Part shown: positions 1,023 to 36,620 of the stretch, piece after piece | How the letters are laid out: the number at the start of each line of letters is the position of its first letter | How positions within the stretch are numbered: position 1 is the stretch's first letter | The notes under the pieces: generated by a model | Databases searched by the model: none | Told to the model about the DNA's origin: nothing | What the model saw: only the letters and a program-made list of their open reading frames with translations | Position numbers and translations under genes: made by a program | Virus record (IMG/VR): IMGVR_UViG_3300045988_160427 | Source of the DNA: a virus | Reading direction: 5' to 3' (one strand) | Length of the DNA stretch: 64,000 bases

Positions 1023-2081
1023 ATGGCAAATTATATTTTAGCTGGTGTTGGTAATATTGATTTGTATAACCAGGGCGATTTAATTGCTACATCTAAGACA
1101 TTAACAGAGAGTAGTATTTCCGTTGAGGTAACAGGAGAGGATGTTCGTGGGGGACAGTCCAATCCACTATTGGGACGTTATTTCCATGATTCCTCTTTAA
1201 CACTTACCTTAACTGATGCTCTGTTTAGTTTAGAATACCTTGCTCTTAACGTGGGTGGTACAATTGAAATTGGTGGTAATGTTCTAACTACAGAAGAAAT
1301 TACTATTGAAACGGCAAATACAATTACTGTTACAGGAACCCCTGTTGAGTTGTTTAATTGGGGAACTGTGGGGTATTATAGAATTGCGGGAGAAAACGAG
1401 TGGAATAAAATCACATTCACTGGAAAAACGGCTACTGTTTCCGATTTGCCGATTGGCACTGTTGTCTGTGTGAAATATAACACACAGAACGCGGGATTGC
1501 GTCAGTTCGTCATTCCGTCTAATATGATTCCTGCTGAGTGTACAGCTATTCTTACAATTGGTTTATTTAAAGCCGACAATGAAACTAAGGTTTCTGATTC
1601 TTCTTCTCGTGTTGGTACTTTGGTTATAGAAATTCCTCGGTTCCAGTTTGCAGGCAGTCAAGAACTTTCTTTGACTTCTGATGGTGTAGCCACAACAAAT
1701 CTAACTGGTTCTGCGCTTGCGGTTTACACTGGCACAAGTTGCGACGATGATGGATATTATGCGATTATCAAAGAAGTTGTTTCAGGTGCGAATTGGTATG
1801 ATGGTCTGCAAGCACTGGCTATTGCGAATGGTGCAGATATTGATTTGCAAGTTCCAAATACTGAAACCTTACAGGTTTATGCGGTATATGGTGGCATTGT
1901 GGCAAGCTCTATTGTAGACAATTCAAATCTAACATTTACTTCTGAGAATGATTCTTATGCTACTGTAGACAATACAGGCAGGATTACAGCAGTAGCAGCG
2001 GGTGAAACTAACATTAAGGTTGTAGCGACAGGTAAACCAGAGATTGAAGCGATTGCCAAGGTAACAGTTACCGCTGGTTAA
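1023..2081 (+). CDS. major tail (tube) protein with C-terminal Big_2 Ig-like domain
   Basis: RBS GGGAGG upstream; C-terminus '...SYATVDNTGRITAVAAGETNIKVVATGKPEIEAIAKVTVTAG' is a classic bacterial Ig-like (Big_2) fold as on lambda gpV-type tail tube proteins; position upstream of chaperone-like genes and TMP. Confidence 0.55.
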   Translation: MANYILAGVGNIDLYNQGDLIATSKTLTESSISVEVTGEDVRGGQSNPLLGRYFHDSSLTLTLTDALFSLEYLALNVGGTIEIGGNVLTTEEITIETANTITVTGTPVELFNWGTVGYYRIAGENEWNKITFTGKTATVSDLPIGTVVCVKYNTQNAGLRQFVIPSNMIPAECTAILTIGLFKADNETKVSDSSSRVGTLVIEIPRFQFAGSQELSLTSDGVATTNLTGSALAVYTGTSCDDDGYYAIIKEVVSGANWYDGLQALAIANGADIDLQVPNTETLQVYAVYGGIVASSIVDNSNLTFTSENDSYATVDNTGRITAVAAGETNIKVVATGKPEIEAIAKVTVTAG

Positions 2082-2120
2082 TTATTTACTTGGGGGTATT
2101 ATACCCCCTAATTACATATT

Positions 2121-2483
2121 ATGAAAGAGAGAGATTCTTTGATGTGTCCTTACTCATTTTATCAAAAGGAAAATGGGATAGAATATTTATATTGTTCTAA
2201 GTCAAACGATATTTGTGTTTATTCTCGATTTTGTACAACGAGAAATAAAGTCATTCCTACTGAATCTCAAAAATATTGTATGTTAAGAATGAAAAAAGAT
2301 GTTCCTGCTGGATATTATAATGTTCGTTTTGAGAAGAAAGGCAAATTATATGTAGATTATGAAAATAGAGTAGTTTGTGTTTCTAATCCCTATAATTTTG
2401 TTCCAGATTATGTTAAAATTGGAACAAGAAAAAAAACTGGGGAATTTTATGTAAGGAAAGAAAAATTATTAAATGGAGATTAA
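2121..2483 (+). CDS. Cys-rich hypothetical protein, translationally coupled partner of MazF-like gene
   Basis: 120 aa, six Cys, overlaps start of 2473..2820 by 11 nt; not MazE/RHH-like by eye. Confidence 0.45.
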   Translation: MKERDSLMCPYSFYQKENGIEYLYCSKSNDICVYSRFCTTRNKVIPTESQKYCMLRMKKDVPAGYYNVRFEKKGKLYVDYENRVVCVSNPYNFVPDYVKIGTRKKTGEFYVRKEKLLNGD

Positions 2484-2820
2484 GCGTGGGGGAATTTATT
2501 TGGCAAACCTTGGCAAAAGGGTTGGAAGTGTGCAGTTTGGTGTTAGACCAATTATAATTGTTGGGAATGATTATAGTTGTCAATACAGTACTGTGTTGTT
2601 ATCTGTCCCATTAACAAGTAAACAGAAAAAATTTTTGCCGACACATTATAATTTAGACAGTAATAAATATCCTTTTTTGTGGAAAGAATTAAATACAGTT
2701 TTAACGGAGCAAATTATGCCAGTAGAAAAAAGACGATTGTTGCAATATTTGGGTGATGTAGAAATTTATGATATGATAAATATAGGAAACAGAATGAGAT
2801 TAGCAATTGGTGTTTATTAA
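2473..2820 (+). CDS. mazF: MazF/EndoA (PemK-family) endoribonuclease toxin-like protein
   Basis: 'KRGGIYLANLGKRVGSVQFGVRPIIIVGNDYS...TVLLSVPLTSK...LPTH...TEQI...KRRL' aligns position by position with B. subtilis EndoA '[30 protein letters not shown]...LPTH...LEQI...KQRL'. Confidence 0.8.
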   Translation: MEIKRGGIYLANLGKRVGSVQFGVRPIIIVGNDYSCQYSTVLLSVPLTSKQKKFLPTHYNLDSNKYPFLWKELNTVLTEQIMPVEKRRLLQYLGDVEIYDMINIGNRMRLAIGVY

Positions 2821-2856
2821 TATATTATGATATTATAAAAAAAAGGAGGGGGGATA

Positions 2857-3240
2857 ATGGAGGGAGTTTCAGATATAAAAAATGATTATCGAAATTTAGA
2901 AAAACGAATTGGGAAAACTGAAACAGGGTTAGCAAGAACTGAAATTCAAATAGCCAATTTAACATCTATTGTAGAACATAATAATGCGACTTTGGATGAT
3001 TTAAATGAAACTATGATAAAAACGAATTATTTATTGGAGCAAAATATTAAAGATGTGGAATACAATAGACAAATTGTTAAGAAAATGGAGGAAAACCTAA
3101 CGAAAGTAGAACACAACATTGAAGAAGTTGATGAAAAGAGCAAGGTTGATATTTTGGGTTTTTTAAAGAAAAATTTTCTTGTTATTGTTGTTTTTGGGGC
3201 TTTTGTATTTTATTATGTAAAAAGTTTATTACCGCTTTGA
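2857..3240 (+). CDS. coiled-coil protein with C-terminal transmembrane anchor
   Basis: RBS AGGAGGGGGG; hydrophobic C-terminus 'FLVIVVFGAFVFYYVKSLL'. Confidence 0.45.
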   Translation: MEGVSDIKNDYRNLEKRIGKTETGLARTEIQIANLTSIVEHNNATLDDLNETMIKTNYLLEQNIKDVEYNRQIVKKMEENLTKVEHNIEEVDEKSKVDILGFLKKNFLVIVVFGAFVFYYVKSLLPL

Positions 3241-3259
3241 TTATGATAGGAGGATATAA

Positions 3260-3652
3260 ATGGAAACATTTAATGATGTTATTATGACAGCGTTGCAAAC
3301 AATTATTACTGTTACCGTTCCATTGATTTCTGCGTTGATTGTATATGGGATTAAGAAAGCAACAAATTGGTTAAAAAGTAAAACAGAAAATGAAACAGTT
3401 GATACTTATTTAAATCGTGCATATTCTATGTTAGAAGATATTGTTGTTACAACCACGGAGACTTATGTTAAGTCTTTGAAAGCCGATGGCAAGTTTGATA
3501 TTGAAGAACAACAAAAGGCATTTGAAATTACAAAGAGCGCTTTTGAACAGGTGGCTAGTGAAGAAATTAAGAACGCGATTAAAACAACTGTGTCAGATTA
3601 TGATGCTTGGGTTAAGAACACAGTTGAGGCTATTATTGCTAATACAAAATAA
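3260..3652 (+). CDS. membrane protein (N-terminal TM helix)
   Basis: RBS TAGGAGG; N-terminal 'ALQTIITVTVPLISALIVYGI' hydrophobic segment. Confidence 0.45.
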   Translation: METFNDVIMTALQTIITVTVPLISALIVYGIKKATNWLKSKTENETVDTYLNRAYSMLEDIVVTTTETYVKSLKADGKFDIEEQQKAFEITKSAFEQVASEEIKNAIKTTVSDYDAWVKNTVEAIIANTK

Positions 3653-3714
3653 AATATTTAGTTAATTAGCAATCAAGTAGGAAAATATAAATTCCTACTT
3701 TTACATATTATGGA

Positions 3715-4176
3715 GTGAAATACATGGAAAAGAAAATGAGAAAAATAGCGAAATTAAAACGTCCTGCTAATATTTATTTAGAAAATCTTGATATTGAGGT
3801 AGTTCCTTTTTTAACTTGGGAAGTTATTGAGTATATTGGAAATGTATTGATTAAGATGGATGGTTCTTATAAAGATAAAGAGATAGCCAAGCATGCTCTA
3901 TTACTAAAATTTTGCACTGACCTAAACGATGATGAAATTGCAGTATTAGACTTTGAAACATTGTGGGTAAATGGATATATTGATGAAATTGAATCGCATA
4001 TTTATGGTGTTGATAAAATTGAATGTTATATTAAAAATATGACCAATCCCAATCATCAAATGTGTCAGTTGCTTTCTGAGTTAGAAACTTTTATATCGAA
4101 AGCAAAAAAAATTAATTGGAAAAAAGTTACAAAAGAGTTGGAGAAAAACACTTCAAAAATATTGTCGGAGGCATAA
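3715..4176 (+). CDS. putative tail assembly chaperone (G-like)
   Basis: ~150-aa gene just upstream of TMP region; downstream ORF open in -1 frame for 61 nt overlap. Confidence 0.35.
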   Translation: MKYMEKKMRKIAKLKRPANIYLENLDIEVVPFLTWEVIEYIGNVLIKMDGSYKDKEIAKHALLLKFCTDLNDDEIAVLDFETLWVNGYIDEIESHIYGVDKIECYIKNMTNPNHQMCQLLSELETFISKAKKINWKKVTKELEKNTSKILSEA

Positions 4177-5208: not shown

Positions 5209-8200
5209 GTGGTATGTTTGGCTAGTAGCAATAATTATCATATTTTAGTTAAAGCAATATTAGATGAAAGTAATTTACAAGGGCAAATAAATAAAGCTGC
5301 TTCAAAAATAAAGAATGTTAAAATAGGAGACGCTGGAACAAAAACCGCAACTTCTGGATTCAATAAAATGAATCAAGCGATTGACAAAACAAGTCAATCT
5401 ATGAGTGATATTATCAAAAAGACTGTTAAGTGGCAGGCAGGAACGCAAGCTATTGATGCCATATATAATTCCTTTAGAAGTGGCGTTTCGGCTGTGTTTG
5501 AGTTAGATGCCGCAATGACTGAATTAAGGAAAGTCAGTGACTTAACTGGTGATGAACTAACAGAGTTTGGCGATAAAGCGTTAAAGGTTGGCGAACGTGT
5601 AGCTAGAACAGCAACTCAAGTTATTGAGGCGGCTACTGAATTCACAAAATCAGGTTTCAATGATATAGAGTCGTTGCAATTGGCTGAAGTTGCTTCGATG
5701 TTTCAAAATGTTGCGGATGAAGAAGTAAATGCAGGAGATGCGGCTTCTTTCTTGATTTCGCAAATGAAAGCTTTTAATATTACAGCGGAAGAGTCAGAAC
5801 ATATAGTAGATGCGGTCAATGAGGTAGCCAACAAATTTGCTGTATCTTCTGGCGATTTAGCTACAGCGGTTCCTAAAGTAGCGGCAACCATGGCGCAAGC
5901 GGGTAATAGTATGGAACAAACATTAGGTTTGCTTACCGCTGGTGCTGAAATGATGCCAGGACAGGCAAGCCGCGTCGCTAGAGGTTTAAGAAGTATAACT
6001 TTAAATCTACAAGCCATGGATGATTCTGGGCAACAAGATTTAGAGTTATTAGCCTCTATGGAGAAAGATTTTAATAAAATCGGGATAACATTACAAGGAA
6101 CAGATGGACAATTAAAATCCACTTTTGATATTTTATCAGAACTTGCAGAAGTTTGGGATACTTTAGATCAAAATACTAAAAATTATTATGCATCATTAAT
6201 AGGTGGGAAAACCCAAGTTGATGTTGTAAACAGTGTTATTTCTAATTTTGATAGTGCTTTGGGTGCGACTGAGGCTGGAATGAACTCTTTCGGATCAGCG
6301 GCTAGAGAAAATGCAGCCTATTTGGATTCTATCGAAGGTCGTATGTCTGCTCTTACGGCTCAATTTCAAAGATTCTTTACAGAAGGTATTAGTTCTGATT
6401 CAGTAAAGAATGTTCTGGGTTTGGCAACTGCCATTTTAGAGGTGGTAAATTCCATTGGTGGTTTACAAACATTTTTACCTATTATAATTAGTTTTGCAAC
6501 CATTTTCATAGGGAAACAATTTCCTAACGGTGTTAATAATTTAAAAAATAGTTTTACTAATTTATTACAGCCTTTGAAGGACTTACCGACTGCTATAAGC
6601 TTGGCAATAGGTGAGTTTACCAGATTAAAATCTAGTGGTGTGTCTTCTTTTTCTGCACTGGCAGGATCGGCATCTAGTTTCTTTAGTTTAATTGGTCCTG
6701 GGGCAATTATAGGCATAGGAGCAACTTTGTTTAGTGTTATTAATGGTGTAATTAATGCACAAGAAGAAGCTCATGCGCAAATGATACAAGATGCTGAACA
6801 AAAAAATTCCGAACTAAAAAGGCAAAGAGAATCTTTAGAAAAAGAAATTGCTTCCTATCAAGAATTAGCGGAAAAAAGGAATGATAGTTCTTCTGATACT
6901 GAAAGATTAAAATACAATGAAGAAATAGCACAAGTTCAAGAGAATATCGTTGATTTAGTTGGTGCTGAGGCCAATGGATTGGATTTAGTTAATGGAAATT
7001 TAGATGAGCAACTTTCCAAACTTGGTTCTCTACATGAAATTTTAACGGATAATCAAAAATTACAATTAGAACTTTTGATGCAAGATGCTGAAACAGATTA
7101 TAATGAATCTCTTGGAAGTATGGAGCAATTTTATGATGAAATTGCCACTATAACAGGGAAAACAGAAGAAGAGATTAGATCAGCTTTTGAATCTGGGTCT
7201 GATGAGATTTATGATTATATTTCCCAAACCAATAAAGAATTACAAAGACAAGCAAAAGAAAATGATAATTTTTATTTAGCAAATAATTTTGCTAATATGT
7301 CTCAAGACTTTTTAACAAAACAAGAAGCATATTATGATTATCAAAATCAATTGTTAGAAGCGAGCACATATGAACAAGAACAGATTCTTTCTGATTTCAT
7401 CAATGAGCGAGATGATTTATTCGCTAATGGAGAAATTGATTCCAAAGAGTCCTTGATGAAATTAGTAGAAGCTATCAAAGATGGAACATTAGACGTTGGT
7501 GAAGCAGCTCTTGAGGCAGGGGTTGATGTCAACACTTATCGTCAAAGGTTGCTTGAGCTTGTAGAAGAAAAATATGGTGCCAAGTTTGCTAATTCAATTT
7601 CCGAACTAAGGACAGTTATAAATGCTGAAGGTGAAGAAATTACTGCGGCGGCTACAGGTTTTGCAAAAAAAATAGAAGAAGCTTTAAAAATAGAACCAGA
7701 AACAGCTTCTTTAGAGACCTCAGTAGAAGGATATAAAAAATTATTAGAGAATGTTTCTTCGGGGAATTGGGGAGCTCAAACACAAGAGTTAATGTCTCTA
7801 TTTTTTGGTGAAGATTGGGTTCAACAATTTGATGGAGATTTGGAAACCGCTGGCAAACATGTTAAAGAGAAATGGGGTTCTTTTTTTCAATACTTCCAAG
7901 ATGGCAATTTTGGGAATTTTGCAAATATTATACAAAATTCTGGCGTTGATGCTGCTCTAGCATCTGTCGGTGCCGATGGTAGTTTAAATATAGATTTTTC
8001 TAGGTTGGATGAATTAGCTGCGAAACTTGGTGTTTCCAAAGAAATGCTAACCACCATTATGAAAGCATATGAACAGACTGGTGGAGTTATTAATTACGAA
8101 TTAGATGATATGATTGCTCGTGCTGAGCAATTGGGATTAATTACGGAAACTGCTTCTGGTAATTTTATTTCTTTGGGAGCTAATGCTCAAGAAGCTTTAG

Positions 8201-25449: not shown

Positions 25450-25638
25450 TTAATTTTGAATTTTATAATATAATCCACATTCACAATATCCTTCTTCTTG
25501 ACTTTCGATAAACTCTTTACACATACATTTGGTTTCTGGGGTTTTTTTAATTTTACATAAGCAGTAATTATTATTTTTTTTCAATTGTTTTTTAAATTGT
25601 TTAACAAAGTCTGTGTCTGGGTTCATAAGAATAATCAT
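25450..25638 (-). CDS. small Cys-rich protein
   Basis: 'CLCKIKK...CMCKEF...CECG'. Confidence 0.4.
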   Translation of the reverse strand: MIILMNPDTDFVKQFKKQLKKNNNYCLCKIKKTPETKCMCKEFIESQEEGYCECGLYYKIQN

Positions 25639-26096
25639 AATATTTTTTTATTTTCCTTTCTGAATTGATGATTAATATTTTCCAAGTAGGTGTGATTTTT
25701 CATATTTACTATTTTATAAGTCTTGCCACGATCACAATAATTTCCTATTCGTATATAATCTAAATTTTTAGCTATAGATTCAAAATGCTTTATTTCATAT
25801 TCGTTTTTAGTATGATAACAACTATAATAAAAAGTCTTATATCCCTCTTTTTTACATAATAATACTACTTTTTCTAAATCGTCTTGGTTTATTTCTGTAT
25901 AAAATAGGTCATGATATATCTCCCAAAAACAAACACAAGTAATTTTATCTTTTTTATGTTTTTCTAATATAGAATGAATATCTTCTAAAAGTTTATTGTG
26001 TTCACAAGAAGACACTCTTTCTTGGACAGTGTTAATAATTAGAACCTTTTCTTTTGGTAGAATATCTTTAATAAAATATGATGAATATGTAAGCAT
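25635..26096 (-). CDS. NrdG-like paralog lacking the radical-SAM CxxxCxxC motif
   Basis: 'ITCVCFWEI...LDYIRIGNY' parallels NrdG 'ITCVCFFGGDH...LDYLKIGRY' but no N-terminal Cys triad. Confidence 0.5.
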   Translation of the reverse strand: MLTYSSYFIKDILPKEKVLIINTVQERVSSCEHNKLLEDIHSILEKHKKDKITCVCFWEIYHDLFYTEINQDDLEKVVLLCKKEGYKTFYYSCYHTKNEYEIKHFESIAKNLDYIRIGNYCDRGKTYKIVNMKNHTYLENINHQFRKENKKIL

Positions 26097-26111: not shown

Positions 26112-26639
26112 TTATTTATTATAAAATAAAGATGTTATATCATATATTTTATAATTTCTTGTGTTGTTGCTATCAAAATGTACAATTTTATAAAAAATTT
26201 GATTTGTGTTTTTTGAATTTAATCCCCCTTTTAGATAATTGTATCTTCCTATTTTTAAATAATCTAAATATTGCATGTAAGTATTAAAATGTTCTAATTC
26301 TTTTTCAGCTTCTCCTAAGGTATGATAAGGTTTGCCATTTCCATATCCAGAATATAAACAAGTTTTTAATTTATGTTTTTTACAAATTTTCAAACATTTT
26401 ATTAGGTCTGATTCATTATGATCTCCCCCAAAGAAACACACGCATGTTATTAAATTTTCATATAGTTTTATAATGTTTTCAAGATTGTCCAGCAATGGTA
26501 TTCCTTCATCTTTCCAAAGGAATGGAGAGTGGCACCCCTTGCATTTATAGGGGCAACCACTAACATTTATTCCCAATGTTACTTCGTTAGGAACCTCTTG
26601 AAAAACTACAAAGTATGATTCATACTTTAGCATTATCAT
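26112..26639 (-). CDS. nrdG: anaerobic ribonucleotide reductase activating protein
   Basis: 'CPYKCKGCHSP' radical-SAM cluster motif; adjacent to nrdD. Confidence 0.75.
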   Translation of the reverse strand: MIMLKYESYFVVFQEVPNEVTLGINVSGCPYKCKGCHSPFLWKDEGIPLLDNLENIIKLYENLITCVCFFGGDHNESDLIKCLKICKKHKLKTCLYSGYGNGKPYHTLGEAEKELEHFNTYMQYLDYLKIGRYNYLKGGLNSKNTNQIFYKIVHFDSNNTRNYKIYDITSLFYNK

Positions 26640-27933
26640 AATACCTCTTTTTTTCCTCTGTCTGCCTTGCTTCGGAAAAACTAGAAACTCTTTTTAAATA
26701 ACCAATGACGCGAGTAATATAATCCAAATTATTACTACCACATTTAGGACATTTAGCTAATTTATGTTTAGACACATAACCGCAATCATTACATGCAGTG
26801 TTTGGAATATTGAATGTAAAATAACTACATCCTGTTTGAATTGCTACATTCAACAACTGTAAATATTGTTGTTTTGTCAAATGTTCTTCGAGGTTGGCAT
26901 GTAAAGCTGAACCACCATCTAAATATTTTGTTAACTTATCTCCGTGTAAAATAAATTTGTCTAATAAATTAGATTTAGTGTCCTCCACAATGTAGAAATA
27001 ACTGTTGTAACAGTCTCTTGGTACAAAATATCCATCTTCTTTATCCCATTTTGCATTTTTAACGCCTAAATTTTCTGCGGGAACAAACTCTGTATTGAAC
27101 ATAATTTCATTAGTTTTATCTTTTTTATTTTCCTCATAAATAGGTCTTAAAATAGCTTCTCCATAATTAAAATATTCTTCATTAGGAGAAATTTCAATGC
27201 CTAAAAATTCTGCTCCTTCCAAAAAACCATTAATACCAATAGTTAAATATTGTTTCTCTAAAGCAATATATCCAGCATCATATACAGGAAGCATACGAGA
27301 ATTAAAATTATCTTTAACAATCTCATTGTATGCTGTTAAATAACAATGAATTTTATGTGTTTGTTCTCTAACTGCTTTCTCAACATCTTTTAGTGTAGCG
27401 TTTTTATTTTTTCTGTATACATTTTGCACCAAACGATTGATGTTAATTGTAATTACGCCTTTAGAGCCAGTGGAAACTCCCCCTGCTCCGAGTGTGAAAG
27501 AAAAAGTATTATCTTGTAATTCATTTTTTAGACGGCAGCATGAAGAAAGGGAGTCGACACTATTACTTCGATAACAAAAGAAAGAATGTCCTTCAGTCCA
27601 CATTTCTGCCACAAAATCTTTCCATTCTTTGTCTACATAATCTTTTCCATCATCTAATAAGTTAACAGTTTCTACAGGGAAAGATAGGAAAGAAGTGGCG
27701 GTTTTTAATCTTTCTGCATTAAACCATTTCATAAAATCCTTTTGAAGCCAATTTACGCTCTCCCAACAAGGCTCAGAACCATCAGGAAAAACAAAATCTT
27801 CAAACATGCCGTTAAAATAAGGTTGGTCGAAATAAGCAATATTCCAAAACCCTTGTATTCCATACAATGCGCTACGTTGTATGCGTTCTCTTATGAACTG
27901 CTTTATGTCACCATAAAGAGTAGACCATATCAC
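26620..27933 (-). CDS. nrdD: anaerobic ribonucleoside-triphosphate reductase, 3' exon
   Basis: C-terminal 'CNDCGY...CPKCGS' Zn site and glycyl-radical motif 'RVIGYL'. Confidence 0.8.
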   Translation of the reverse strand: MIWSTLYGDIKQFIRERIQRSALYGIQGFWNIAYFDQPYFNGMFEDFVFPDGSEPCWESVNWLQKDFMKWFNAERLKTATSFLSFPVETVNLLDDGKDYVDKEWKDFVAEMWTEGHSFFCYRSNSVDSLSSCCRLKNELQDNTFSFTLGAGGVSTGSKGVITININRLVQNVYRKNKNATLKDVEKAVREQTHKIHCYLTAYNEIVKDNFNSRMLPVYDAGYIALEKQYLTIGINGFLEGAEFLGIEISPNEEYFNYGEAILRPIYEENKKDKTNEIMFNTEFVPAENLGVKNAKWDKEDGYFVPRDCYNSYFYIVEDTKSNLLDKFILHGDKLTKYLDGGSALHANLEEHLTKQQYLQLLNVAIQTGCSYFTFNIPNTACNDCGYVSKHKLAKCPKCGSNNLDYITRVIGYLKRVSSFSEARQTEEKKRYYDNAKV

Positions 27934-28841
27934 TATCCTTTGAAAGGATACTCCCCATTTCCACTATCAAACGCTTATAGTGTACTTGCTTTCGCAATGG
28001 TCGTTGAACGTTCCCTTTATAGGGCTTCGCTTCTGATTGTCTTATTATAATTATGAATTTTAAACAAGTGACAGTTTTTACAATAAGTAATTAAATTATT
28101 TTTATCTAAAAATCTAGGGTCGGCAATAATAATATTATATAATTCATCTACTTTATCAACAACATTTAATTCTTTATGTTCGTTACATATTTTTTTAATT
28201 ATTGTTGCAAAAGGAATGATATGATGTGTGTGTAAATTATTATGGCTCCCGCATATTTGACAAGTATAATTATCTCTTTTCCGAACTTCTGGAGAAATAT
28301 TGTTTTGATAAAACTGTCTACATCTTGATTCTAAGGTGCTTATTCCACCTTTCCAATTATGGTGTTCTTTACCTTTTTGTACCCCAATCTTGGCTTCCGA
28401 AATGTCTCTAACATGGATTTTAAATTCTTTTAAAACTCTATTTATTACATGAGGGGCACAATTAAACATTTTACCTAATTGTTCTTTTGTACAATGTTGT
28501 GTTATATATAAATCATACATTTTATTATAATCATTAAATTCAGGAGGAATTTCTTTATTGTTTTTAGCAAAGTGTGAAGCGCTTAGAGAGCGCCTCTCTA
28601 CTCCCATTTGTATTAAATGATTTAAAACACTTCTATGAGAGGTTTGTAATATTTTACCTATTTCTACACTTGATTTTTTTTGATTTATATATAAGTCAAA
28701 AATGATCTCATCATCTTTTTGGGTTAATTTTCTCCCCATTTGTATCACCTCCTTGTTTTAGAATGATAAAATTATAATCATAATAAGATTTTCCAGAAAT
28801 TAAAGGAGTTTGCTATATCTATTACTACATATAGGCGCATT
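27934..28841 (-). mobile_element. putative group I intron interrupting nrdD (approximate bounds)
   Basis: nrdD N- and C-terminal halves separated by ~0.9 kb containing a free-standing HNH ORF with its own RBS; exon ORFs run into in-frame stops shortly inside. Confidence 0.6.
28017..28748 (-). CDS. HNH homing endonuclease with tandem N-terminal HTH modules
   Basis: RBS AAGGAGGTGAT; 'CQICGSHNNLHTHHIIP...CKNCH' HNH motif. Confidence 0.8.
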   Translation of the reverse strand: MIQMGRKLTQKDDEIIFDLYINQKKSSVEIGKILQTSHRSVLNHLIQMGVERRSLSASHFAKNNKEIPPEFNDYNKMYDLYITQHCTKEQLGKMFNCAPHVINRVLKEFKIHVRDISEAKIGVQKGKEHHNWKGGISTLESRCRQFYQNNISPEVRKRDNYTCQICGSHNNLHTHHIIPFATIIKKICNEHKELNVVDKVDELYNIIIADPRFLDKNNLITYCKNCHLFKIHNYNKTIRSEAL

Positions 28842-29495
28842 TTAGTTTACGCTTTGAAAATTCCTCGCGGCGGCTGGCTGATTTAGCGAATAAACCACTT
28901 GACTAAATTTGTCATGAATAATTGAATGAATGGTTCTTTCTCTTCCTATTGCGTTTACTACTACATCTGGATTTAAGTAATAATTATCTCCATATTCTTT
29001 TCTGATAAAATAATCCATATACATTAAAAATTCTGGTGTACTTACAGCTCCTGCAAATTGCGAAGCAATAGCAAAAACCAAGTTAACAAAACTTCCGCAA
29101 AATGAATCTAAATTTTTTGGTGCTGTAGATAAACCTCCGATATTGGTTAAACCATCAAATAAAAATGGATACATAGTAATACTTACACAATAAGGCAACA
29201 TTGGATTGGTTTCGTCATGTCTATAAATTTCATGACCATCCAAAGAACGAATATACTCCTCTGCTAACTCTTCACCATAAAGCTCCGTAATTTTCTCAAT
29301 CATTAAAAGTCTATTAATACCTATGGCATCTTTTTTATACAATTCTCCAGTACAGGTAGTTACATTTTTATTTTCCACATTTGCATTCGAATCAACTTGA
29401 CTTCCGCTTGCGGCATTTGAAGCTACTCTATAGGAATTAATAAAATCAACATAGGAACGATATTTTTCTTTATAGTTCAATAAAAGATTTGACAT
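28842..29495 (-). CDS. nrdD: anaerobic ribonucleoside-triphosphate reductase, 5' exon
   Basis: N-terminal NrdD-like region; ORF tail 'SLNQPAAARNFQSVN*' likely intron-encoded read-through. Confidence 0.7.
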   Translation of the reverse strand: MSNLLLNYKEKYRSYVDFINSYRVASNAASGSQVDSNANVENKNVTTCTGELYKKDAIGINRLLMIEKITELYGEELAEEYIRSLDGHEIYRHDETNPMLPYCVSITMYPFLFDGLTNIGGLSTAPKNLDSFCGSFVNLVFAIASQFAGAVSTPEFLMYMDYFIRKEYGDNYYLNPDVVVNAIGRERTIHSIIHDKFSQVVYSLNQPAAARNFQSVN

Positions 29496-32690: not shown

Positions 32691-35600
32691 TTATACTCCT
32701 TTTCTTTCACTTCTTATGATGAGGTCTGCATTATTTGAAACTTTTTCAATTAATAAAACAGTATGTTTGAAGATTGAGTTTTTATATTTTTTAGCTCTGA
32801 AATAATCATTATTTCTATAACCAACAATGCATAGTTTTGTTCCTCTTTTGAACCAACTATCATCTACCATGACTTTGTGTTCAACATCGCCCTGTGATAT
32901 TCTTTGCTCATAGTAACTATAAGTTTCATCATTGAATTTTACACTTATTACTTTATTTTGAGGTGTCAAAATTTCTATCGTTCTTTTATTTTTATTTTTA
33001 TCTACCACAGTTCCACAAATTCTATAAAGATCATACTGTTTCCATATAAACTCCTCCCCGTTTCTTTTTTTATAACTTTTGATTGCATAGCTTGGGTCTT
33101 CTGGAAGCAAATCAAAATTAATAATATTATACTTATCAAAATTAACAGACATTAGTTCATGTTGATCTTTGGGATAAAAAGACGTGGAAGAAAAAGCCCA
33201 CTCTAATTCATTATTTTCTTCTATGTTGTTTTCATATAATATTTTCTTACCTATATTATTAAAATTTTTAATAAAATCTTCATTGGAAATATATTGTTTT
33301 ATCTTCTCTGCATAAGGCTTCGTTGCACGATCTAAATTTTTATCAATAATTATCATATAATCATTTTCATAATAAAAATCCACATCCTCTTTTAAGTTAG
33401 GAAACCAGTATAACAAATCAGACTCAACTTTTTTCGGAACCATATAATGTTTTTTTGTTTTTATTTTTTCATCTTGTTTGTAAAAATTCATTTTATTTTT
33501 GATATTTTTACAAAGCATATACGGAGTTAATAAATTTTCTGGTATATAAATATCATATTCCAATATTTTATTAATATTTTGCAATGATAATTCTTTTTTT
33601 TCTTCATATTCTAATGAAAAAAATTCTTTCATTATTTCAATTCTGTTTTCATTGAATTCATCAAAACAACCAGCCTTTATTAATGTAATTATTTTTTGCT
33701 TCTTAATTAGCGATTCTTTATTATTTTTAATTTTGTTATAAAAATCTATAAAAGAATCATAAGGTCTATTATTAACTATTTCTCTAGCTACTTCGTTGCT
33801 AATTCCAGAAATACCACCTAATCCAAAAAGAATACTATTATCTTCTCTGTTTGGCGTGAAAGAAATGTTTGATTTATTAATTGATGGTGGTAAAATATTT
33901 ATTCCATGATGTTTCATTTTATAAATACTTCGCGCCATTTTTCCATAGTCAATAGCTGTCCTTTTATCTTTTTCATCGTCTGATTGACTTTCCACAGTTA
34001 AACAGGCACAATTCCAATAAACGGGCGGGTAATAATAATTCAAATTCAATTCTTGCAAAGCAATGATCGAATAAGATGCCGAATGTATTTGAGAAAAAGA
34101 ATAGCCAAAACTTGCAGCAAAAATTACATTCCAAATATACTCTAAAAACAATTTTCTGGTTCCTAGTTTTTCACCATATTCAAAAAATTGTTTTTTCGCT
34201 TCTTCTTGTAATTGTGCACTTTTTTTCGCAATACTTTTTCTAAGTTTATTACTTTCTTTTAAAGTATACCCGCTTACTCTTTTGTCCATGCTAATACGCA
34301 TTAATTTTTCTTGGCTATCTGCTAAACCATAAGAATCATTTAAGTACTCTTTTAAACAAGCTTGCTCATTTTCATTCAACCCATAACTTGTCATTTCTTC
34401 ATACCAATCATTTATATTTTGTTTAAATCTTGCATATTTTAACAATGGAGACTCTTGACCTGGTTGTGCCATTAATCTAAGCAAATTGTTAGTAGCAGAT
34501 AAATCCATAACGCTGTGAGGTTGTGTAAGGTTTAAAGCACGCTCACTTATTTTGGTATCAAATTGAAACACACTATAAATATTTTTAATTATATCCCACA
34601 TATTTTTATCATCATATTCTAAAATATCAGGATGAATATATTTTTCGTATGTTTTTTTCAGTGTTCCTTGCCACTCTATAATTCCATCTTTTAATAATAG
34701 ATTTAGTGTCGTATGAATTTTATCTGTGGCTATGGTTTTTAACAAATCAAACTTAATTTCTCCACAGTATTCAGAGTCTATTAAATCGTAACAAGAACAT
34801 AATTCTCCTTTAGGGGAACGCATAGAAGCAATATAGTTAGTATATGAGTCATTACCAACTAAAATACCAGCAGCATGTGTACTTCTTCCTGTAATCAAAC
34901 CTTCTAAAGAAAGAGCACATTCTTTCAAATTAGGATATTTTTCTACTTCACGAATAAAACTTTGGATAGGTTGCCTTTGTTTCTCTACGTTGCCCTCGAG
35001 ACAATCTCGCAAACTCCAAGTAAAACCTCTTTCTACTGGTATCATTGATTTAATATAATCTGCCACATCGTTGTTAATACCAAGCCCTTTGCAGCTTTTT
35101 TCTATGGCAGTTTTACTCGTTAGCGCAGAAAAAGTTGCTATACTTAAAACTCTGTCTTCACCAAAATATTCAACTACCCCTTGGATGATTTCATTCTTCT
35201 TAGATGATTCTGAATCTGTATCTATATCTGGTAATTCTACACCTCTATCTATATTCATAAATCTCCAAAAAGGCATATATTCTCCGAAAGGAACTGGGTC
35301 TATTTGAGTAATGTCTAGTAAATAACAAGACAGACATGCGCCGGCACTTCCTCTACCTGGCATTACTAAACTTCCAGCTTCCCATATGATATCTATAATT
35401 TTTGACATAGAACTGAAATAACAGGGAATAGATGTTCCCAATTCTTCACTTATTAAATGAAATTGTTCAAATTCTTCATCTAGTCTAGCAATATATTTTT
35501 CCAAATTTTCTTTTTTGGAATTAGTACAAATTTTTTCTTTTATTCCTTTTTCAACTTGGTAGAAAAAATATTGTTCATGCAATGTTCTTTGGGGATTAGC

Positions 35601-36620
35601 ATAATAGGCAAAATTATTATATTTAGAATAATAATTGCTAAAAGTATGCTCTATTTTAAAATTGGGTAATTTATTTTCTGGAATTTGAGGAATTATAGGA
35701 TTGTGTTTTAAATTATATTCATCTATTTTATTGAAAATTTCTTTAGTGTTTTCATAAAGAATATCAATTTCCTCATCGGTGAATAAAATTCTCAAAAATT
35801 GTCTTAATTCCTTTTCATCCATTAAATACGTTGTAGCATAAAAACTGTCTACTTCTCTATCGCCTTCTTTAGAATTTAGATAAATTTTATGAATAAAAGA
35901 TGATTCCTTAGTTAAATAGTGAGCATCAGTAGTAGGAATAATTTTTAAATTATAAGCTTTAGATAAATCAATCATAGCTTTATTAACAATTAATTGTTCT
36001 TGATTGGTTTCTTCACATGGTTGAATCTCTAGAAAGAAATTATTTTTCCCAAAAACTTCAACGCACCACGTAATAAAAGCATGTATTTCTAATTTAGCAG
36101 TTTCTTCCCCATTTTTCCATTTTAAAATCATTCTATCTAAAAATCCACCCAAACATGCGGTAGAAGCAATTATATGCCCTGTATTTCTTTTAATAATTTT
36201 TTCCACATCCGCATAATAAGTAGGAGTTCTCATAATTCCTCGAGAAAAATAAGCTCTTCCCCAAGCTAAACTTGAAAGCTCTCTTATTTGTTGATAACCT
36301 ACTTCATCTAAAGCGGTTAATATAAAATGATAATAAGGATAAATTGTATTTTTAGCCGCTCTGTTGGCTTCATCTTCTTTTTCATCCATCAAATATATTT
36401 CGTTGCCCAAAGCGATCTTAAAAGGTCTGTCTTTTTTCATTTTTTGATAGTATTGCAACGCTTTGATGTGCGAAGATAGACACTCATGATTGGTGATAGA
36501 AATTCCTAACAAACCTAAATCATAAGATTTTTGAATAACATCTTCGACTTTGTTGACAACATCTGGAAAACCTAGGGCGGCATTACTGTATTCATCATGA
36601 ACATGATTATTAAAATACAT
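32691..36620 (-). CDS. dnaE: DNA polymerase III alpha subunit (DnaE-type, PHP domain)
   Basis: 1309 aa; N-terminal PHP 'HVHDEYSNAALGFPD'; polymerase core length. Confidence 0.8.
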   Translation of the reverse strand: MYFNNHVHDEYSNAALGFPDVVNKVEDVIQKSYDLGLLGISITNHECLSSHIKALQYYQKMKKDRPFKIALGNEIYLMDEKEDEANRAAKNTIYPYYHFILTALDEVGYQQIRELSSLAWGRAYFSRGIMRTPTYYADVEKIIKRNTGHIIASTACLGGFLDRMILKWKNGEETAKLEIHAFITWCVEVFGKNNFFLEIQPCEETNQEQLIVNKAMIDLSKAYNLKIIPTTDAHYLTKESSFIHKIYLNSKEGDREVDSFYATTYLMDEKELRQFLRILFTDEEIDILYENTKEIFNKIDEYNLKHNPIIPQIPENKLPNFKIEHTFSNYYSKYNNFAYYANPQRTLHEQYFFYQVEKGIKEKICTNSKKENLEKYIARLDEEFEQFHLISEELGTSIPCYFSSMSKIIDIIWEAGSLVMPGRGSAGACLSCYLLDITQIDPVPFGEYMPFWRFMNIDRGVELPDIDTDSESSKKNEIIQGVVEYFGEDRVLSIATFSALTSKTAIEKSCKGLGINNDVADYIKSMIPVERGFTWSLRDCLEGNVEKQRQPIQSFIREVEKYPNLKECALSLEGLITGRSTHAAGILVGNDSYTNYIASMRSPKGELCSCYDLIDSEYCGEIKFDLLKTIATDKIHTTLNLLLKDGIIEWQGTLKKTYEKYIHPDILEYDDKNMWDIIKNIYSVFQFDTKISERALNLTQPHSVMDLSATNNLLRLMAQPGQESPLLKYARFKQNINDWYEEMTSYGLNENEQACLKEYLNDSYGLADSQEKLMRISMDKRVSGYTLKESNKLRKSIAKKSAQLQEEAKKQFFEYGEKLGTRKLFLEYIWNVIFAASFGYSFSQIHSASYSIIALQELNLNYYYPPVYWNCACLTVESQSDDEKDKRTAIDYGKMARSIYKMKHHGINILPPSINKSNISFTPNREDNSILFGLGGISGISNEVAREIVNNRPYDSFIDFYNKIKNNKESLIKKQKIITLIKAGCFDEFNENRIEIMKEFFSLEYEEKKELSLQNINKILEYDIYIPENLLTPYMLCKNIKNKMNFYKQDEKIKTKKHYMVPKKVESDLLYWFPNLKEDVDFYYENDYMIIIDKNLDRATKPYAEKIKQYISNEDFIKNFNNIGKKILYENNIEENNELEWAFSSTSFYPKDQHELMSVNFDKYNIINFDLLPEDPSYAIKSYKKRNGEEFIWKQYDLYRICGTVVDKNKNKRTIEILTPQNKVISVKFNDETYSYYEQRISQGDVEHKVMVDDSWFKRGTKLCIVGYRNNDYFRAKKYKNSIFKHTVLLIEKVSNNADLIIRSERKGV

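Follow-up and report, generated by a model that had tools for sequence, protein, structure and literature searches.

In a gut phage, nrdD, the gene for the anaerobic ribonucleotide reductase, very probably contains a group I intron of subgroup IA2, 998 nt long and self-splicing, which in turn carries the gene for an HNH homing endonuclease. The phage is represented by IMG/VR record IMGVR_UViG_3300045988_160427, a 64-kb stretch of approximately 30% GC; this whole stretch is referred to here as the window, all positions follow its numbering, and nrdD lies on the minus strand. Rather than forming a pseudogene, the fragments into which nrdD is split appear to make up one functional gene. An earlier note, made from the letters of the window, had proposed that a group I intron encoding an HNH homing endonuclease lies at this locus, a proposal supported by the junction, the covarying core, and the intact catalytic residues. 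It had put the insert at about 0.9 kb and had given open reading frame (ORF) coordinates as those of the exons; the insert in fact measures 998 nt and lies between exons that run 29495..28849 and 27850..26620.

The split gene and its junction

Three minus-strand ORFs span positions 26620-29495, namely 28842..29495 (217 aa), 28017..28748 (243 aa), and 26620..27933 (437 aa). The outer two match successive parts of the Pfam NRDD profile (positions 8-158 and 169-560, respectively), confirming that two halves of nrdD lie on either side of the endonuclease region, as had been suspected. The downstream exon encodes the catalytic Cys region, the Zn ribbon (CNDCG...CPKCG), and the glycyl-radical motif RVIGY. 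The in-frame stops that had been noticed just inside the insert are likewise present: UAA (28844-28842) ends the exon-1 frame two codons into the insert, and UAG (27966-27964), 114 nt inside, bounds the exon-2 frame on its upstream side. As called, the exon-1 and exon-2 ORFs contain 7 and 83 nt of intron, respectively.

Excision of 28848..27851 joins ...CAA AGC GU to G UUU UGG... and yields a single open NrdD of 625 aa, which reads NQPAAARNFQSV^FWNIAYFD at the junction (a caret marks the insertion point throughout) and aligns there without a gap to uninterrupted homologues. Uninterrupted nrdD genes were present in 74 related loci among those fetched up to that comparison. For example, the gene of MT835470 (L002 in our numbering of comparison loci) is 61% identical and reads NQPAAARNFQSVFWNISYFD across the junction without a gap, and a crAss-like phage gene is also gapless through this point. 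Alignment of the spliced product to NrdD, which the earlier note had suggested as a check, gave a match from position 8 to 560 of the 562 in Pfam NRDD (E=3e-93). Shifting the boundary by 1 nt would encode an identical protein but would place A instead of U at the 5' splice site, and the boundary GU^...G^G is preferred for that reason. An intein was rejected as an explanation, as the insert is out of frame and has stops on both sides.

A covarying intron core

Sequence and predicted fold place the insert among the group I introns, in subgroup IA2; it runs from P1 to P9.2 and has a P3/P7 pseudoknot (Table 1). The helices were derived by hand, and their coordinates were then checked against the sequence. 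P1, which is present in minimum-free-energy folds, places a U·G pair at the 5' splice site (U28849). The subgroup is diagnosed by P7.1 and P7.2 lying between P7 and P3' and linked by G-U-A (PMC3428280); the intron is assigned to IA2 because the stretch 27997-27962 has exactly this arrangement, reading UUGCGAAAGCAA-GUA-CACUAU...AUAGUG, and both of its helices covary.

Table 1. Features of the nrdD locus, with the intron helices as predicted
Feature	Position	Strand	Pairing, basis, or remark
nrdD exon 1	28849..29495	-	215 codons + 2 nt, end ...CAA AGC GU; Pfam NRDD 8-158, junction versus uninterrupted homologues
nrdD exon 2	26620..27850	-	1 nt, 409 codons, stop; Pfam NRDD 169-560
Predicted group I intron, subgroup IA2, 998 nt	27851..28848	-	Rfam RF00028, nhmmer profile of 9 other introns, covariation
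P1 region	28835..28852	-	exon GCGU + intron A1 (28852-28848) / internal guide sequence UGCGC (28839-28835)
P10, 5 bp	AAAAU 28843-28839	-	pairs with first five bases of exon 2, GUUUU
P2 hairpin	28813..28834	-	covariation, same-site introns, folding
P3	ACUCCUU 28809-28803 / GGGGAGU 27956-27950	-	spans ORF; part of P3/P7 pseudoknot
P4	UUCUGG 28798-28793 / UCAGAA 28036-28031	-	4/6 pairs covary
P5	UCUUAUUAU 28788-28780 / AUAAUAAGA 28048-28040	-	loop contains endonuclease gene
P6/P6a	28008..28030	-	loop contains endonuclease stop codon
P7	GACCA 28002-27998 / UGGUC 27927-27923	-	encloses P7.1, P7.2, P3', P8
P7.1	27997-27986	-	followed by GUA linker, then P7.2 27982-27962
P8	27949-27935	-	within P7 enclosure
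P9	27918-27901	-	followed by conserved CAGUUCAUAAGAGAACG
P9.2	27883-27861	-	alignment and covariation
Terminal G of intron	27851	-	agrees with group I 3' splice-site rule
HNH homing endonuclease gene (predicted), 240 aa	28017..28739	-	PHROG 8446, invariant residues, structure model
Shine-Dalgarno AAGGAGGUGAU of endonuclease gene	28744..28754	-	sequence
nrdG activase	26112..26639	-	overlaps nrdD stop (operon context); Fer4_12, Radical_SAM, and PHROG 626 matches; intact

Covariation was assessed in an alignment of ten introns, comprising the ORF-deleted window intron and nine ORF-less phage introns, over 63 proposed pairs. Across the ten, 92.5% of pair cells were paired, compared with 36-42% when partners were slid by 1-3 columns. 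Compensatory change on both sides was found in 45 of the 63 pairs, and none of 500 shuffles matched the observed values. The structure came from one member of the alignment and is somewhat favored by that choice; the compensatory signal far exceeds this bias. In addition, every column invariant in the other nine introns is preserved in the window intron.

Independent evidence comes from diverged introns that occupy the exact same nrdD site and were found via endonuclease homologues, namely L103 (77.6% nt identity) and L104/L105 (68.6%). Compensatory changes in L103 or L104 fall in P1 (exon versus guide), in P3, P4, and P5, which span the ORF, and in P7, P7.1, P7.2, P8, P9, and P9.2. For example, P4 changes from UUCUGG/UCAGAA to UGCUAG/CUAGCA in L104, P5 from UCUUAUU/AAUAAGA to UCUUACC/GGUAAGA in L103, and P3 from ACUCCUU/GGGGAGU to ACUCUUU/GGAGAGG in the same-site introns. 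In P1 of L104, GCGU/GCGC becomes CCGU/GCGG, so that the guide tracks a codon change in the exon. Finally, P7 is GACCA/UGGUC in the window and GACUA/UAGUC in the 11 other introns compared, a U-A to C-G replacement that is preserved in the near-identical contig L008; this lineage-specific compensatory double change argues against decay of the ribozyme.

Detection by covariance model depended on how the search was framed. With the whole window as query, Rfam gave no match at the gathering threshold, and the E-value mode also missed the intron owing to its speed filters. A search restricted to 27700-29100 matched RF00028 at 28119..27901 (43.9 bits, E=1.5e-9). The earlier note had pointed to a detectable P3-P7 core as the thing to look for; the core is there, and a default Rfam search alone would miss it because of the large ORF insertion, the 723-nt ORF in L5 (the P5 loop) lying outside what the covariance model can represent. 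Sequence similarity, on the other hand, is widespread. BLASTN with the whole intron found core similarity in 463 phage records, and the ORF-deleted intron matched 488, with query coverage of 80% or more in 27. Among these matches are the T-even nrdB intron and numerous ORF-less introns from phages of Bacillus, Staphylococcus, Enterococcus, and Clostridioides, from which the nine relatives used for covariation were drawn. An nhmmer profile built from the nine ORF-less introns, with the window sequence left out, matched the 64-kb window in just two places, 28839..28780 (E=2.5e-8) and 28046..27856 (E=2.5e-39), which flank the endonuclease ORF; this search found no further intron of the family in the window. 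The near-identical contigs L007-L009 carry the same intron at 97.6-98.7% identity.

The fold suggests how splicing would proceed. After transcription the intron would fold, P1 would offer U28849 in its U·G pair with the internal guide, and an exogenous guanosine bound in P7 would attack the bond at the 5' splice site. P10 would align exon 2, the freed 3'-OH of exon 1 would attack after the terminal G at 27851, and ligation would join ...AGCGU to GUUUUGG..., restoring the 625-aa NrdD. The ligated RNA would read CAAAGCGU^GUUUUGG or, in a longer form, ...UUUUCAAAGCGU^GUUUUGGAAUAUUGC.... Ribosomes on exon 1 would halt two codons into the intron and, because this stop lies in the P1 loop, should leave the core folded. 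Translation of the endonuclease and folding of the intron, by comparison, are probably mutually exclusive, because the reading frame enters P5'-P4'-P6.

The endonuclease and the case for mobility

The L5-borne gene encodes a protein with two N-terminal helix-turn-helix (HTH) modules and a C-terminal HNH/zinc domain. Its match to the PHROG "HNH endonuclease" family phrog_8446 (E=6e-26), together with the two modules, agrees with the HNH endonuclease with tandem HTH modules that had been read from the sequence; so does its own ribosome-binding site (RBS), a Shine-Dalgarno sequence, AAGGAGGTGAT (28754-28744), placed 8 nt upstream of ATG 28739. The last ~11 codons (…IRSEAL and stop) overlap P5', P4', and P6, and the conserved "SEA/SQA" motif at the C-terminus of intron-borne homologues arises simply because conserved P4'/P6 nucleotides are read as codons.

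A database search returned 103 homologues of the endonuclease, in which two to four HTH modules at the N-terminus are followed by an HNH domain at the C-terminus. Residues C160, C163, H172, H173, N215, C220, C223, and H224 are invariant in an alignment of 56 homologues, and the predicted catalytic and zinc sites are considered intact in the window protein because these Cys4/His/Asn residues are all kept. A confident AlphaFold model (predicted local distance difference test score, pLDDT, 87.5) gave as its best PDB structure match the HNH nuclease SciA of phage T5, with probability 1.0 but E=0.05, and its N-terminal half is similar to bipartite HTH domains of the Pax (paired)/Mos1 type; the E-values of these structure matches are all weak (at least 0.05), as expected of a multi-domain model. 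A sequence search against PDB returned nothing significant, and BLASTP against I-TevIII of phage HY03 found no similarity. Sequestration of the Shine-Dalgarno sequence by the 5' strand of P3 or by a local hairpin, as in T4 intron endonucleases, was considered and rejected for the window. In the same-site introns, the 5' part of the P5 loop forms a stable hairpin (-11.6 kcal/mol and z=-4.1 in L103, -12.2 kcal/mol and z=-5.4 in L104) that contains the RBS or start codon of the endonuclease, an arrangement that recalls T4 intron endonuclease regulation.

The case for mobility begins with an empty site. The close relative L044, whose NrdD is 84% identical, lacks the intron at this position, and its 39-nt junction differs from the ligated exons of the window by 1 nt, at a third codon position; the L044-type empty-site sequence is GCGAGGAATTTTCAAAGCGTATTTTGGAATATTGCTTAT plus flanks. 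Among 83 alleles, ...CAR NNN GU^N UUY UGG AAY... is one of the most conserved stretches of nrdD. An ORF in a peripheral loop, sporadic presence, and empty-site relatives, as expected of an intron-borne homing endonuclease, are found here. During mixed infection, the endonuclease would presumably nick or cut an intron-less nrdD near this conserved stretch, and repair of the cut allele would copy the intron in (homing).

Several observations weigh against the proposed self-splicing, mobile intron. The RF00028 score of 43.9 bits lies below the gathering threshold of 50 and was missed at default and whole-window settings; the Pfam HNH and HTH matches to the endonuclease are also sub-threshold, that to HNH narrowly so (21.3 against a cut-off of 21.4). 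The RBS hairpin in the window is weak (-4.3 kcal/mol, z=-0.9), and T4-like regulation is unsupported here. Splicing, the activity and target of the endonuclease, and homing are what we infer from sequence. A control weakens the first objection: the annotated T4-type nrdB intron of phage HY03 scored 35.6 bits in the same Rfam search, being the sole group I match in nine related loci, and the Rfam threshold is for this reason not informative for this intron family. Were the low score instead a sign of a decayed core, splicing, itself deduced from sequence, would have been lost and nrdD would be a two-piece pseudogene. Such decay is very improbable given the preserved invariant columns, the compensatory double change in P7 that L008 shares, and two intact exons whose spliced product matches Pfam NRDD end to end, with nrdG also intact. 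It is harder still to credit a free-standing endonuclease gene that splits nrdD into halves acting as separate polypeptides in the absence of splicing, even though mobE divides nrdA of Aeromonas phage Aeh1 in this manner (PMC3653736) and larger relatives of the endonuclease stand free beside nrdD. Between the halves lies an entire group I fold with covariation, and its guide sequence can pair with the ends of both exons. The insertion also interrupts a codon (GU^G), and the exon-2 ORF has neither a start codon nor an RBS at the junction.

A more serious, if still unlikely, alternative is that the intron splices and is immobile, the endonuclease being inactive or its target lost, such that inheritance is vertical only. 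Precedent exists in T4 nrdB with its truncated I-TevIII (PMC2988022, PMC1865063), endonuclease activity in the window rests on sequence prediction, and the near-identical L007-L009 all carry the intron, so that no transfer event is directly visible. Set against this are a full-length ORF with all family-invariant catalytic and zinc residues kept, homologues (59-80% identical) that occupy this site in nrdD genes with just 54-74% identity, and the empty-site allele of a close relative.

Related introns, neighboring insertions, and significance

By sequence, the closest characterized intron among those compared is that of T-even nrdB (84% over positions 5-62 and 79% over 888-965), which is likewise an IA2 intron with an HNH endonuclease, I-TevIII, in a ribonucleotide reductase gene. 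It differs in its host gene, nrdB (class Ia), and the endonucleases are alike in motif type alone. I-TevIII is truncated in T4 and full length in RB3 and HY03. The ORF of the T4 nrdB intron lies in P6a, and that of HY03 nrdB begins ~155 nt into the intron, whereas the window ORF is in L5.

The earlier note had likened the locus to the T4 nrdD (sunY) intron, a comparison that holds in outline and fails in the particulars. Both are group I introns in the same host gene, the T4 element being a mobile, IA-type intron of 1033 nt (7848..6816 in the coordinates of L102) that matches the nine-intron profile weakly (53 bits). The T4 intron encodes I-TevII, a GIY-YIG enzyme, after P9 near its 3' end (PMC2988022). 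Neither trait of the T4 nrdD lineage, the insertion site or a GIY-YIG gene near the 3' end, is found in the window intron, with its HNH gene in L5. The T4 intron sits at Pfam NRDD ~144 (Tyr180 codon) and the window intron at ~158 (Val216 codon), 14 codons downstream, a distance mapped through profile coordinates and good to about a codon; by tblastn, window NrdD was too distant from T4 to align around the junction.

The unannotated metagenomic introns at the same site (L103, L104/L105, and L007-L009) share the identical insertion point (QSV^FW or QAV^FW), the same fold, and a homologous endonuclease (59-100% identical) in L5, and belong to no described family; they differ in that their nrdD genes have extra inteins elsewhere. 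The nrdD genes of Lak megaphages (Lak-C1 and Lak-B) also carry a group I intron in the same conserved stretch, with a homologous HTH + HNH endonuclease (40% aa identity). This intron (approximately 2467-3864 in Lak-C1, L005, and 1739-3169 in Lak-B1, L101) is inserted 2 nt further downstream (GCAU^UUG), and its first 10 nt, AAACUAAAAU, are identical to those of the window intron. Its endonuclease gene is in the P1 loop, before the guide, and the guide, GUGCUGA, which follows the ORF, pairs with exon UCAGCAU. Lak phages read TAG as a sense codon.

Of 104 genomes of Jug jumbo gut phages, 95 have an nrdD broken up by group I introns and HNH genes, with splicing supported by metatranscriptome reads (PMC12880540); these phages (360-402 kb, on Bacteroides/Phocaeicola) are likened to the window by gene organization, not by site or intron sequence. 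The SPO1 I-HmuI, Bastille I-BasI, Twort nrdE, and Pf-WMP3 I-PfoP3I introns are IA2 introns with HNH genes, and their ORFs can enter core helices (PMC3428280). They differ in host gene (DNA polymerase, nrdE, capsid, and others). In I-HmuI, the HNH domain is N-terminal and the DNA-binding modules are C-terminal, the reverse of the order in the window protein.

The endonuclease lineage has been found in several settings: free-standing downstream of an intact nrdD (L106), in L5 of the window intron, and in the P1 loop of the Lak intron, which is a different, IA-type intron. The conserved nrdD stretch for which the lineage would be specialized encodes ...NQPAAxR..QSxF(W/V)N.... The free-standing relatives (L106 2501-3577 and L107 825-1901) have 358 aa with extra HTH modules and lie immediately downstream of an intact 778-aa ATP-cone nrdD; a profile search found no intron core near them. 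It is tempting to suggest that one nrdD-specific HTH + HNH endonuclease lineage became intron-borne more than once, a possibility that we put at somewhat less than an even chance. If true, these loci would provide a natural series showing how a free-standing, site-specific endonuclease and an already existing group I intron are assembled into a mobile intron, and would connect phages of Firmicutes and Bacteroidota hosts (Lak phages infecting Prevotella).

Insertions elsewhere in nrdD were common in the fetched relatives, at aa 102/103, ~150 (intein), 202, 216, 216+2 nt, ~275, 321 (intein), 422, 473/474, and 528. A 1372-nt insert in Lak-A2 (L004, 3033-4404), missing in Lak-A1 (L003), follows the first nt of a Tyr codon at Pfam NRDD ~144, the position of the T4 nrdD intron. 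Its coding sequence, which contains in-frame TAG codons, specifies a distantly related HTH-HNH protein (26% identity). Lak-B1 has another insert of ~820 nt (3342-4162) near NrdD residue ~275, whose 3' core is the Lak sequence most like the window intron (77% over 160 nt). In-frame, intein-like inserts occur in L005 (3915-5714) and L103 (3383-5635), at SSCC^...HNC^RLKN, and in L104 (612-2411) at ~aa 150; Pfam Intein_splicing was recorded for L103 and L104. Inserts at aa 102/103 (1.2 kb), 422 (1.3 kb), 528 (250 nt), and 473/474 (286-906 nt) come from L043, L044, L047-L049, and L061, those of L047-L049 matching the nine-intron profile weakly. Upstream of nrdD in crAss-like phage cr116_1 (L001), a complete IA2-type core (2835-3086, 152 bits with the intron-family profile) directly follows a "mobile intron protein" coding sequence, and an unannotated intron probably splits the neighboring gene. 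In L047, an Rfam RAGATH-18 RNA (813-885, 75.9 bits against a threshold of 44.9) lies ~1.6 kb upstream of nrdD.

Judged by its DnaE-like polymerase, which is 51% identical to that of Enterocloster phages, the gut phage is of Firmicutes type. It occurs in IMG/VR samples 3300029251 and 3300045988. A megablast search of INPHARED with 24 kb of the window gave no match, and the phage itself is thus not a deposited genome. The polymerase gene (32691-36620, minus strand) is one intact ORF of 1309 aa; of the six records of Enterocloster phages listed, five matched it in three pieces, and four of these have annotated "DNA endonuclease" genes there. Directly downstream of nrdG, a 153-aa ORF (25635-26096, minus strand) encodes an NrdG paralogue (32% identity, E=1e-13) that lacks the CxxxCxxC radical-SAM cluster and has no match in Pfam or PHROG; the product may be an activase-like protein, either degenerate or accessory.

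Ribonucleotide reductase genes of phages have been known to harbor HNH-bearing group I introns since the 1980s. No concept is changed by the present example, the type of intron being already familiar and a split nrdD of gut jumbo phages having been described together with splicing evidence (PMC12880540). Its value lies in part in annotation, in that an exact splice junction is now defined for two nrdD fragments. Similar introns in phage metagenomes are probably under-called, because default Rfam scanning misses the window intron. A 2013 survey found nrdD to be the phage ribonucleotide reductase gene most often split (PMC3653736), and the window adds one more insertion site to this crowded gene, in which introns or inteins occupy nine or more distinct positions among the relatives examined. 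Finally, the pair of filled and empty sites, together with the diverged introns at the same site, could help in studying how this family of endonucleases recognizes its homing site.

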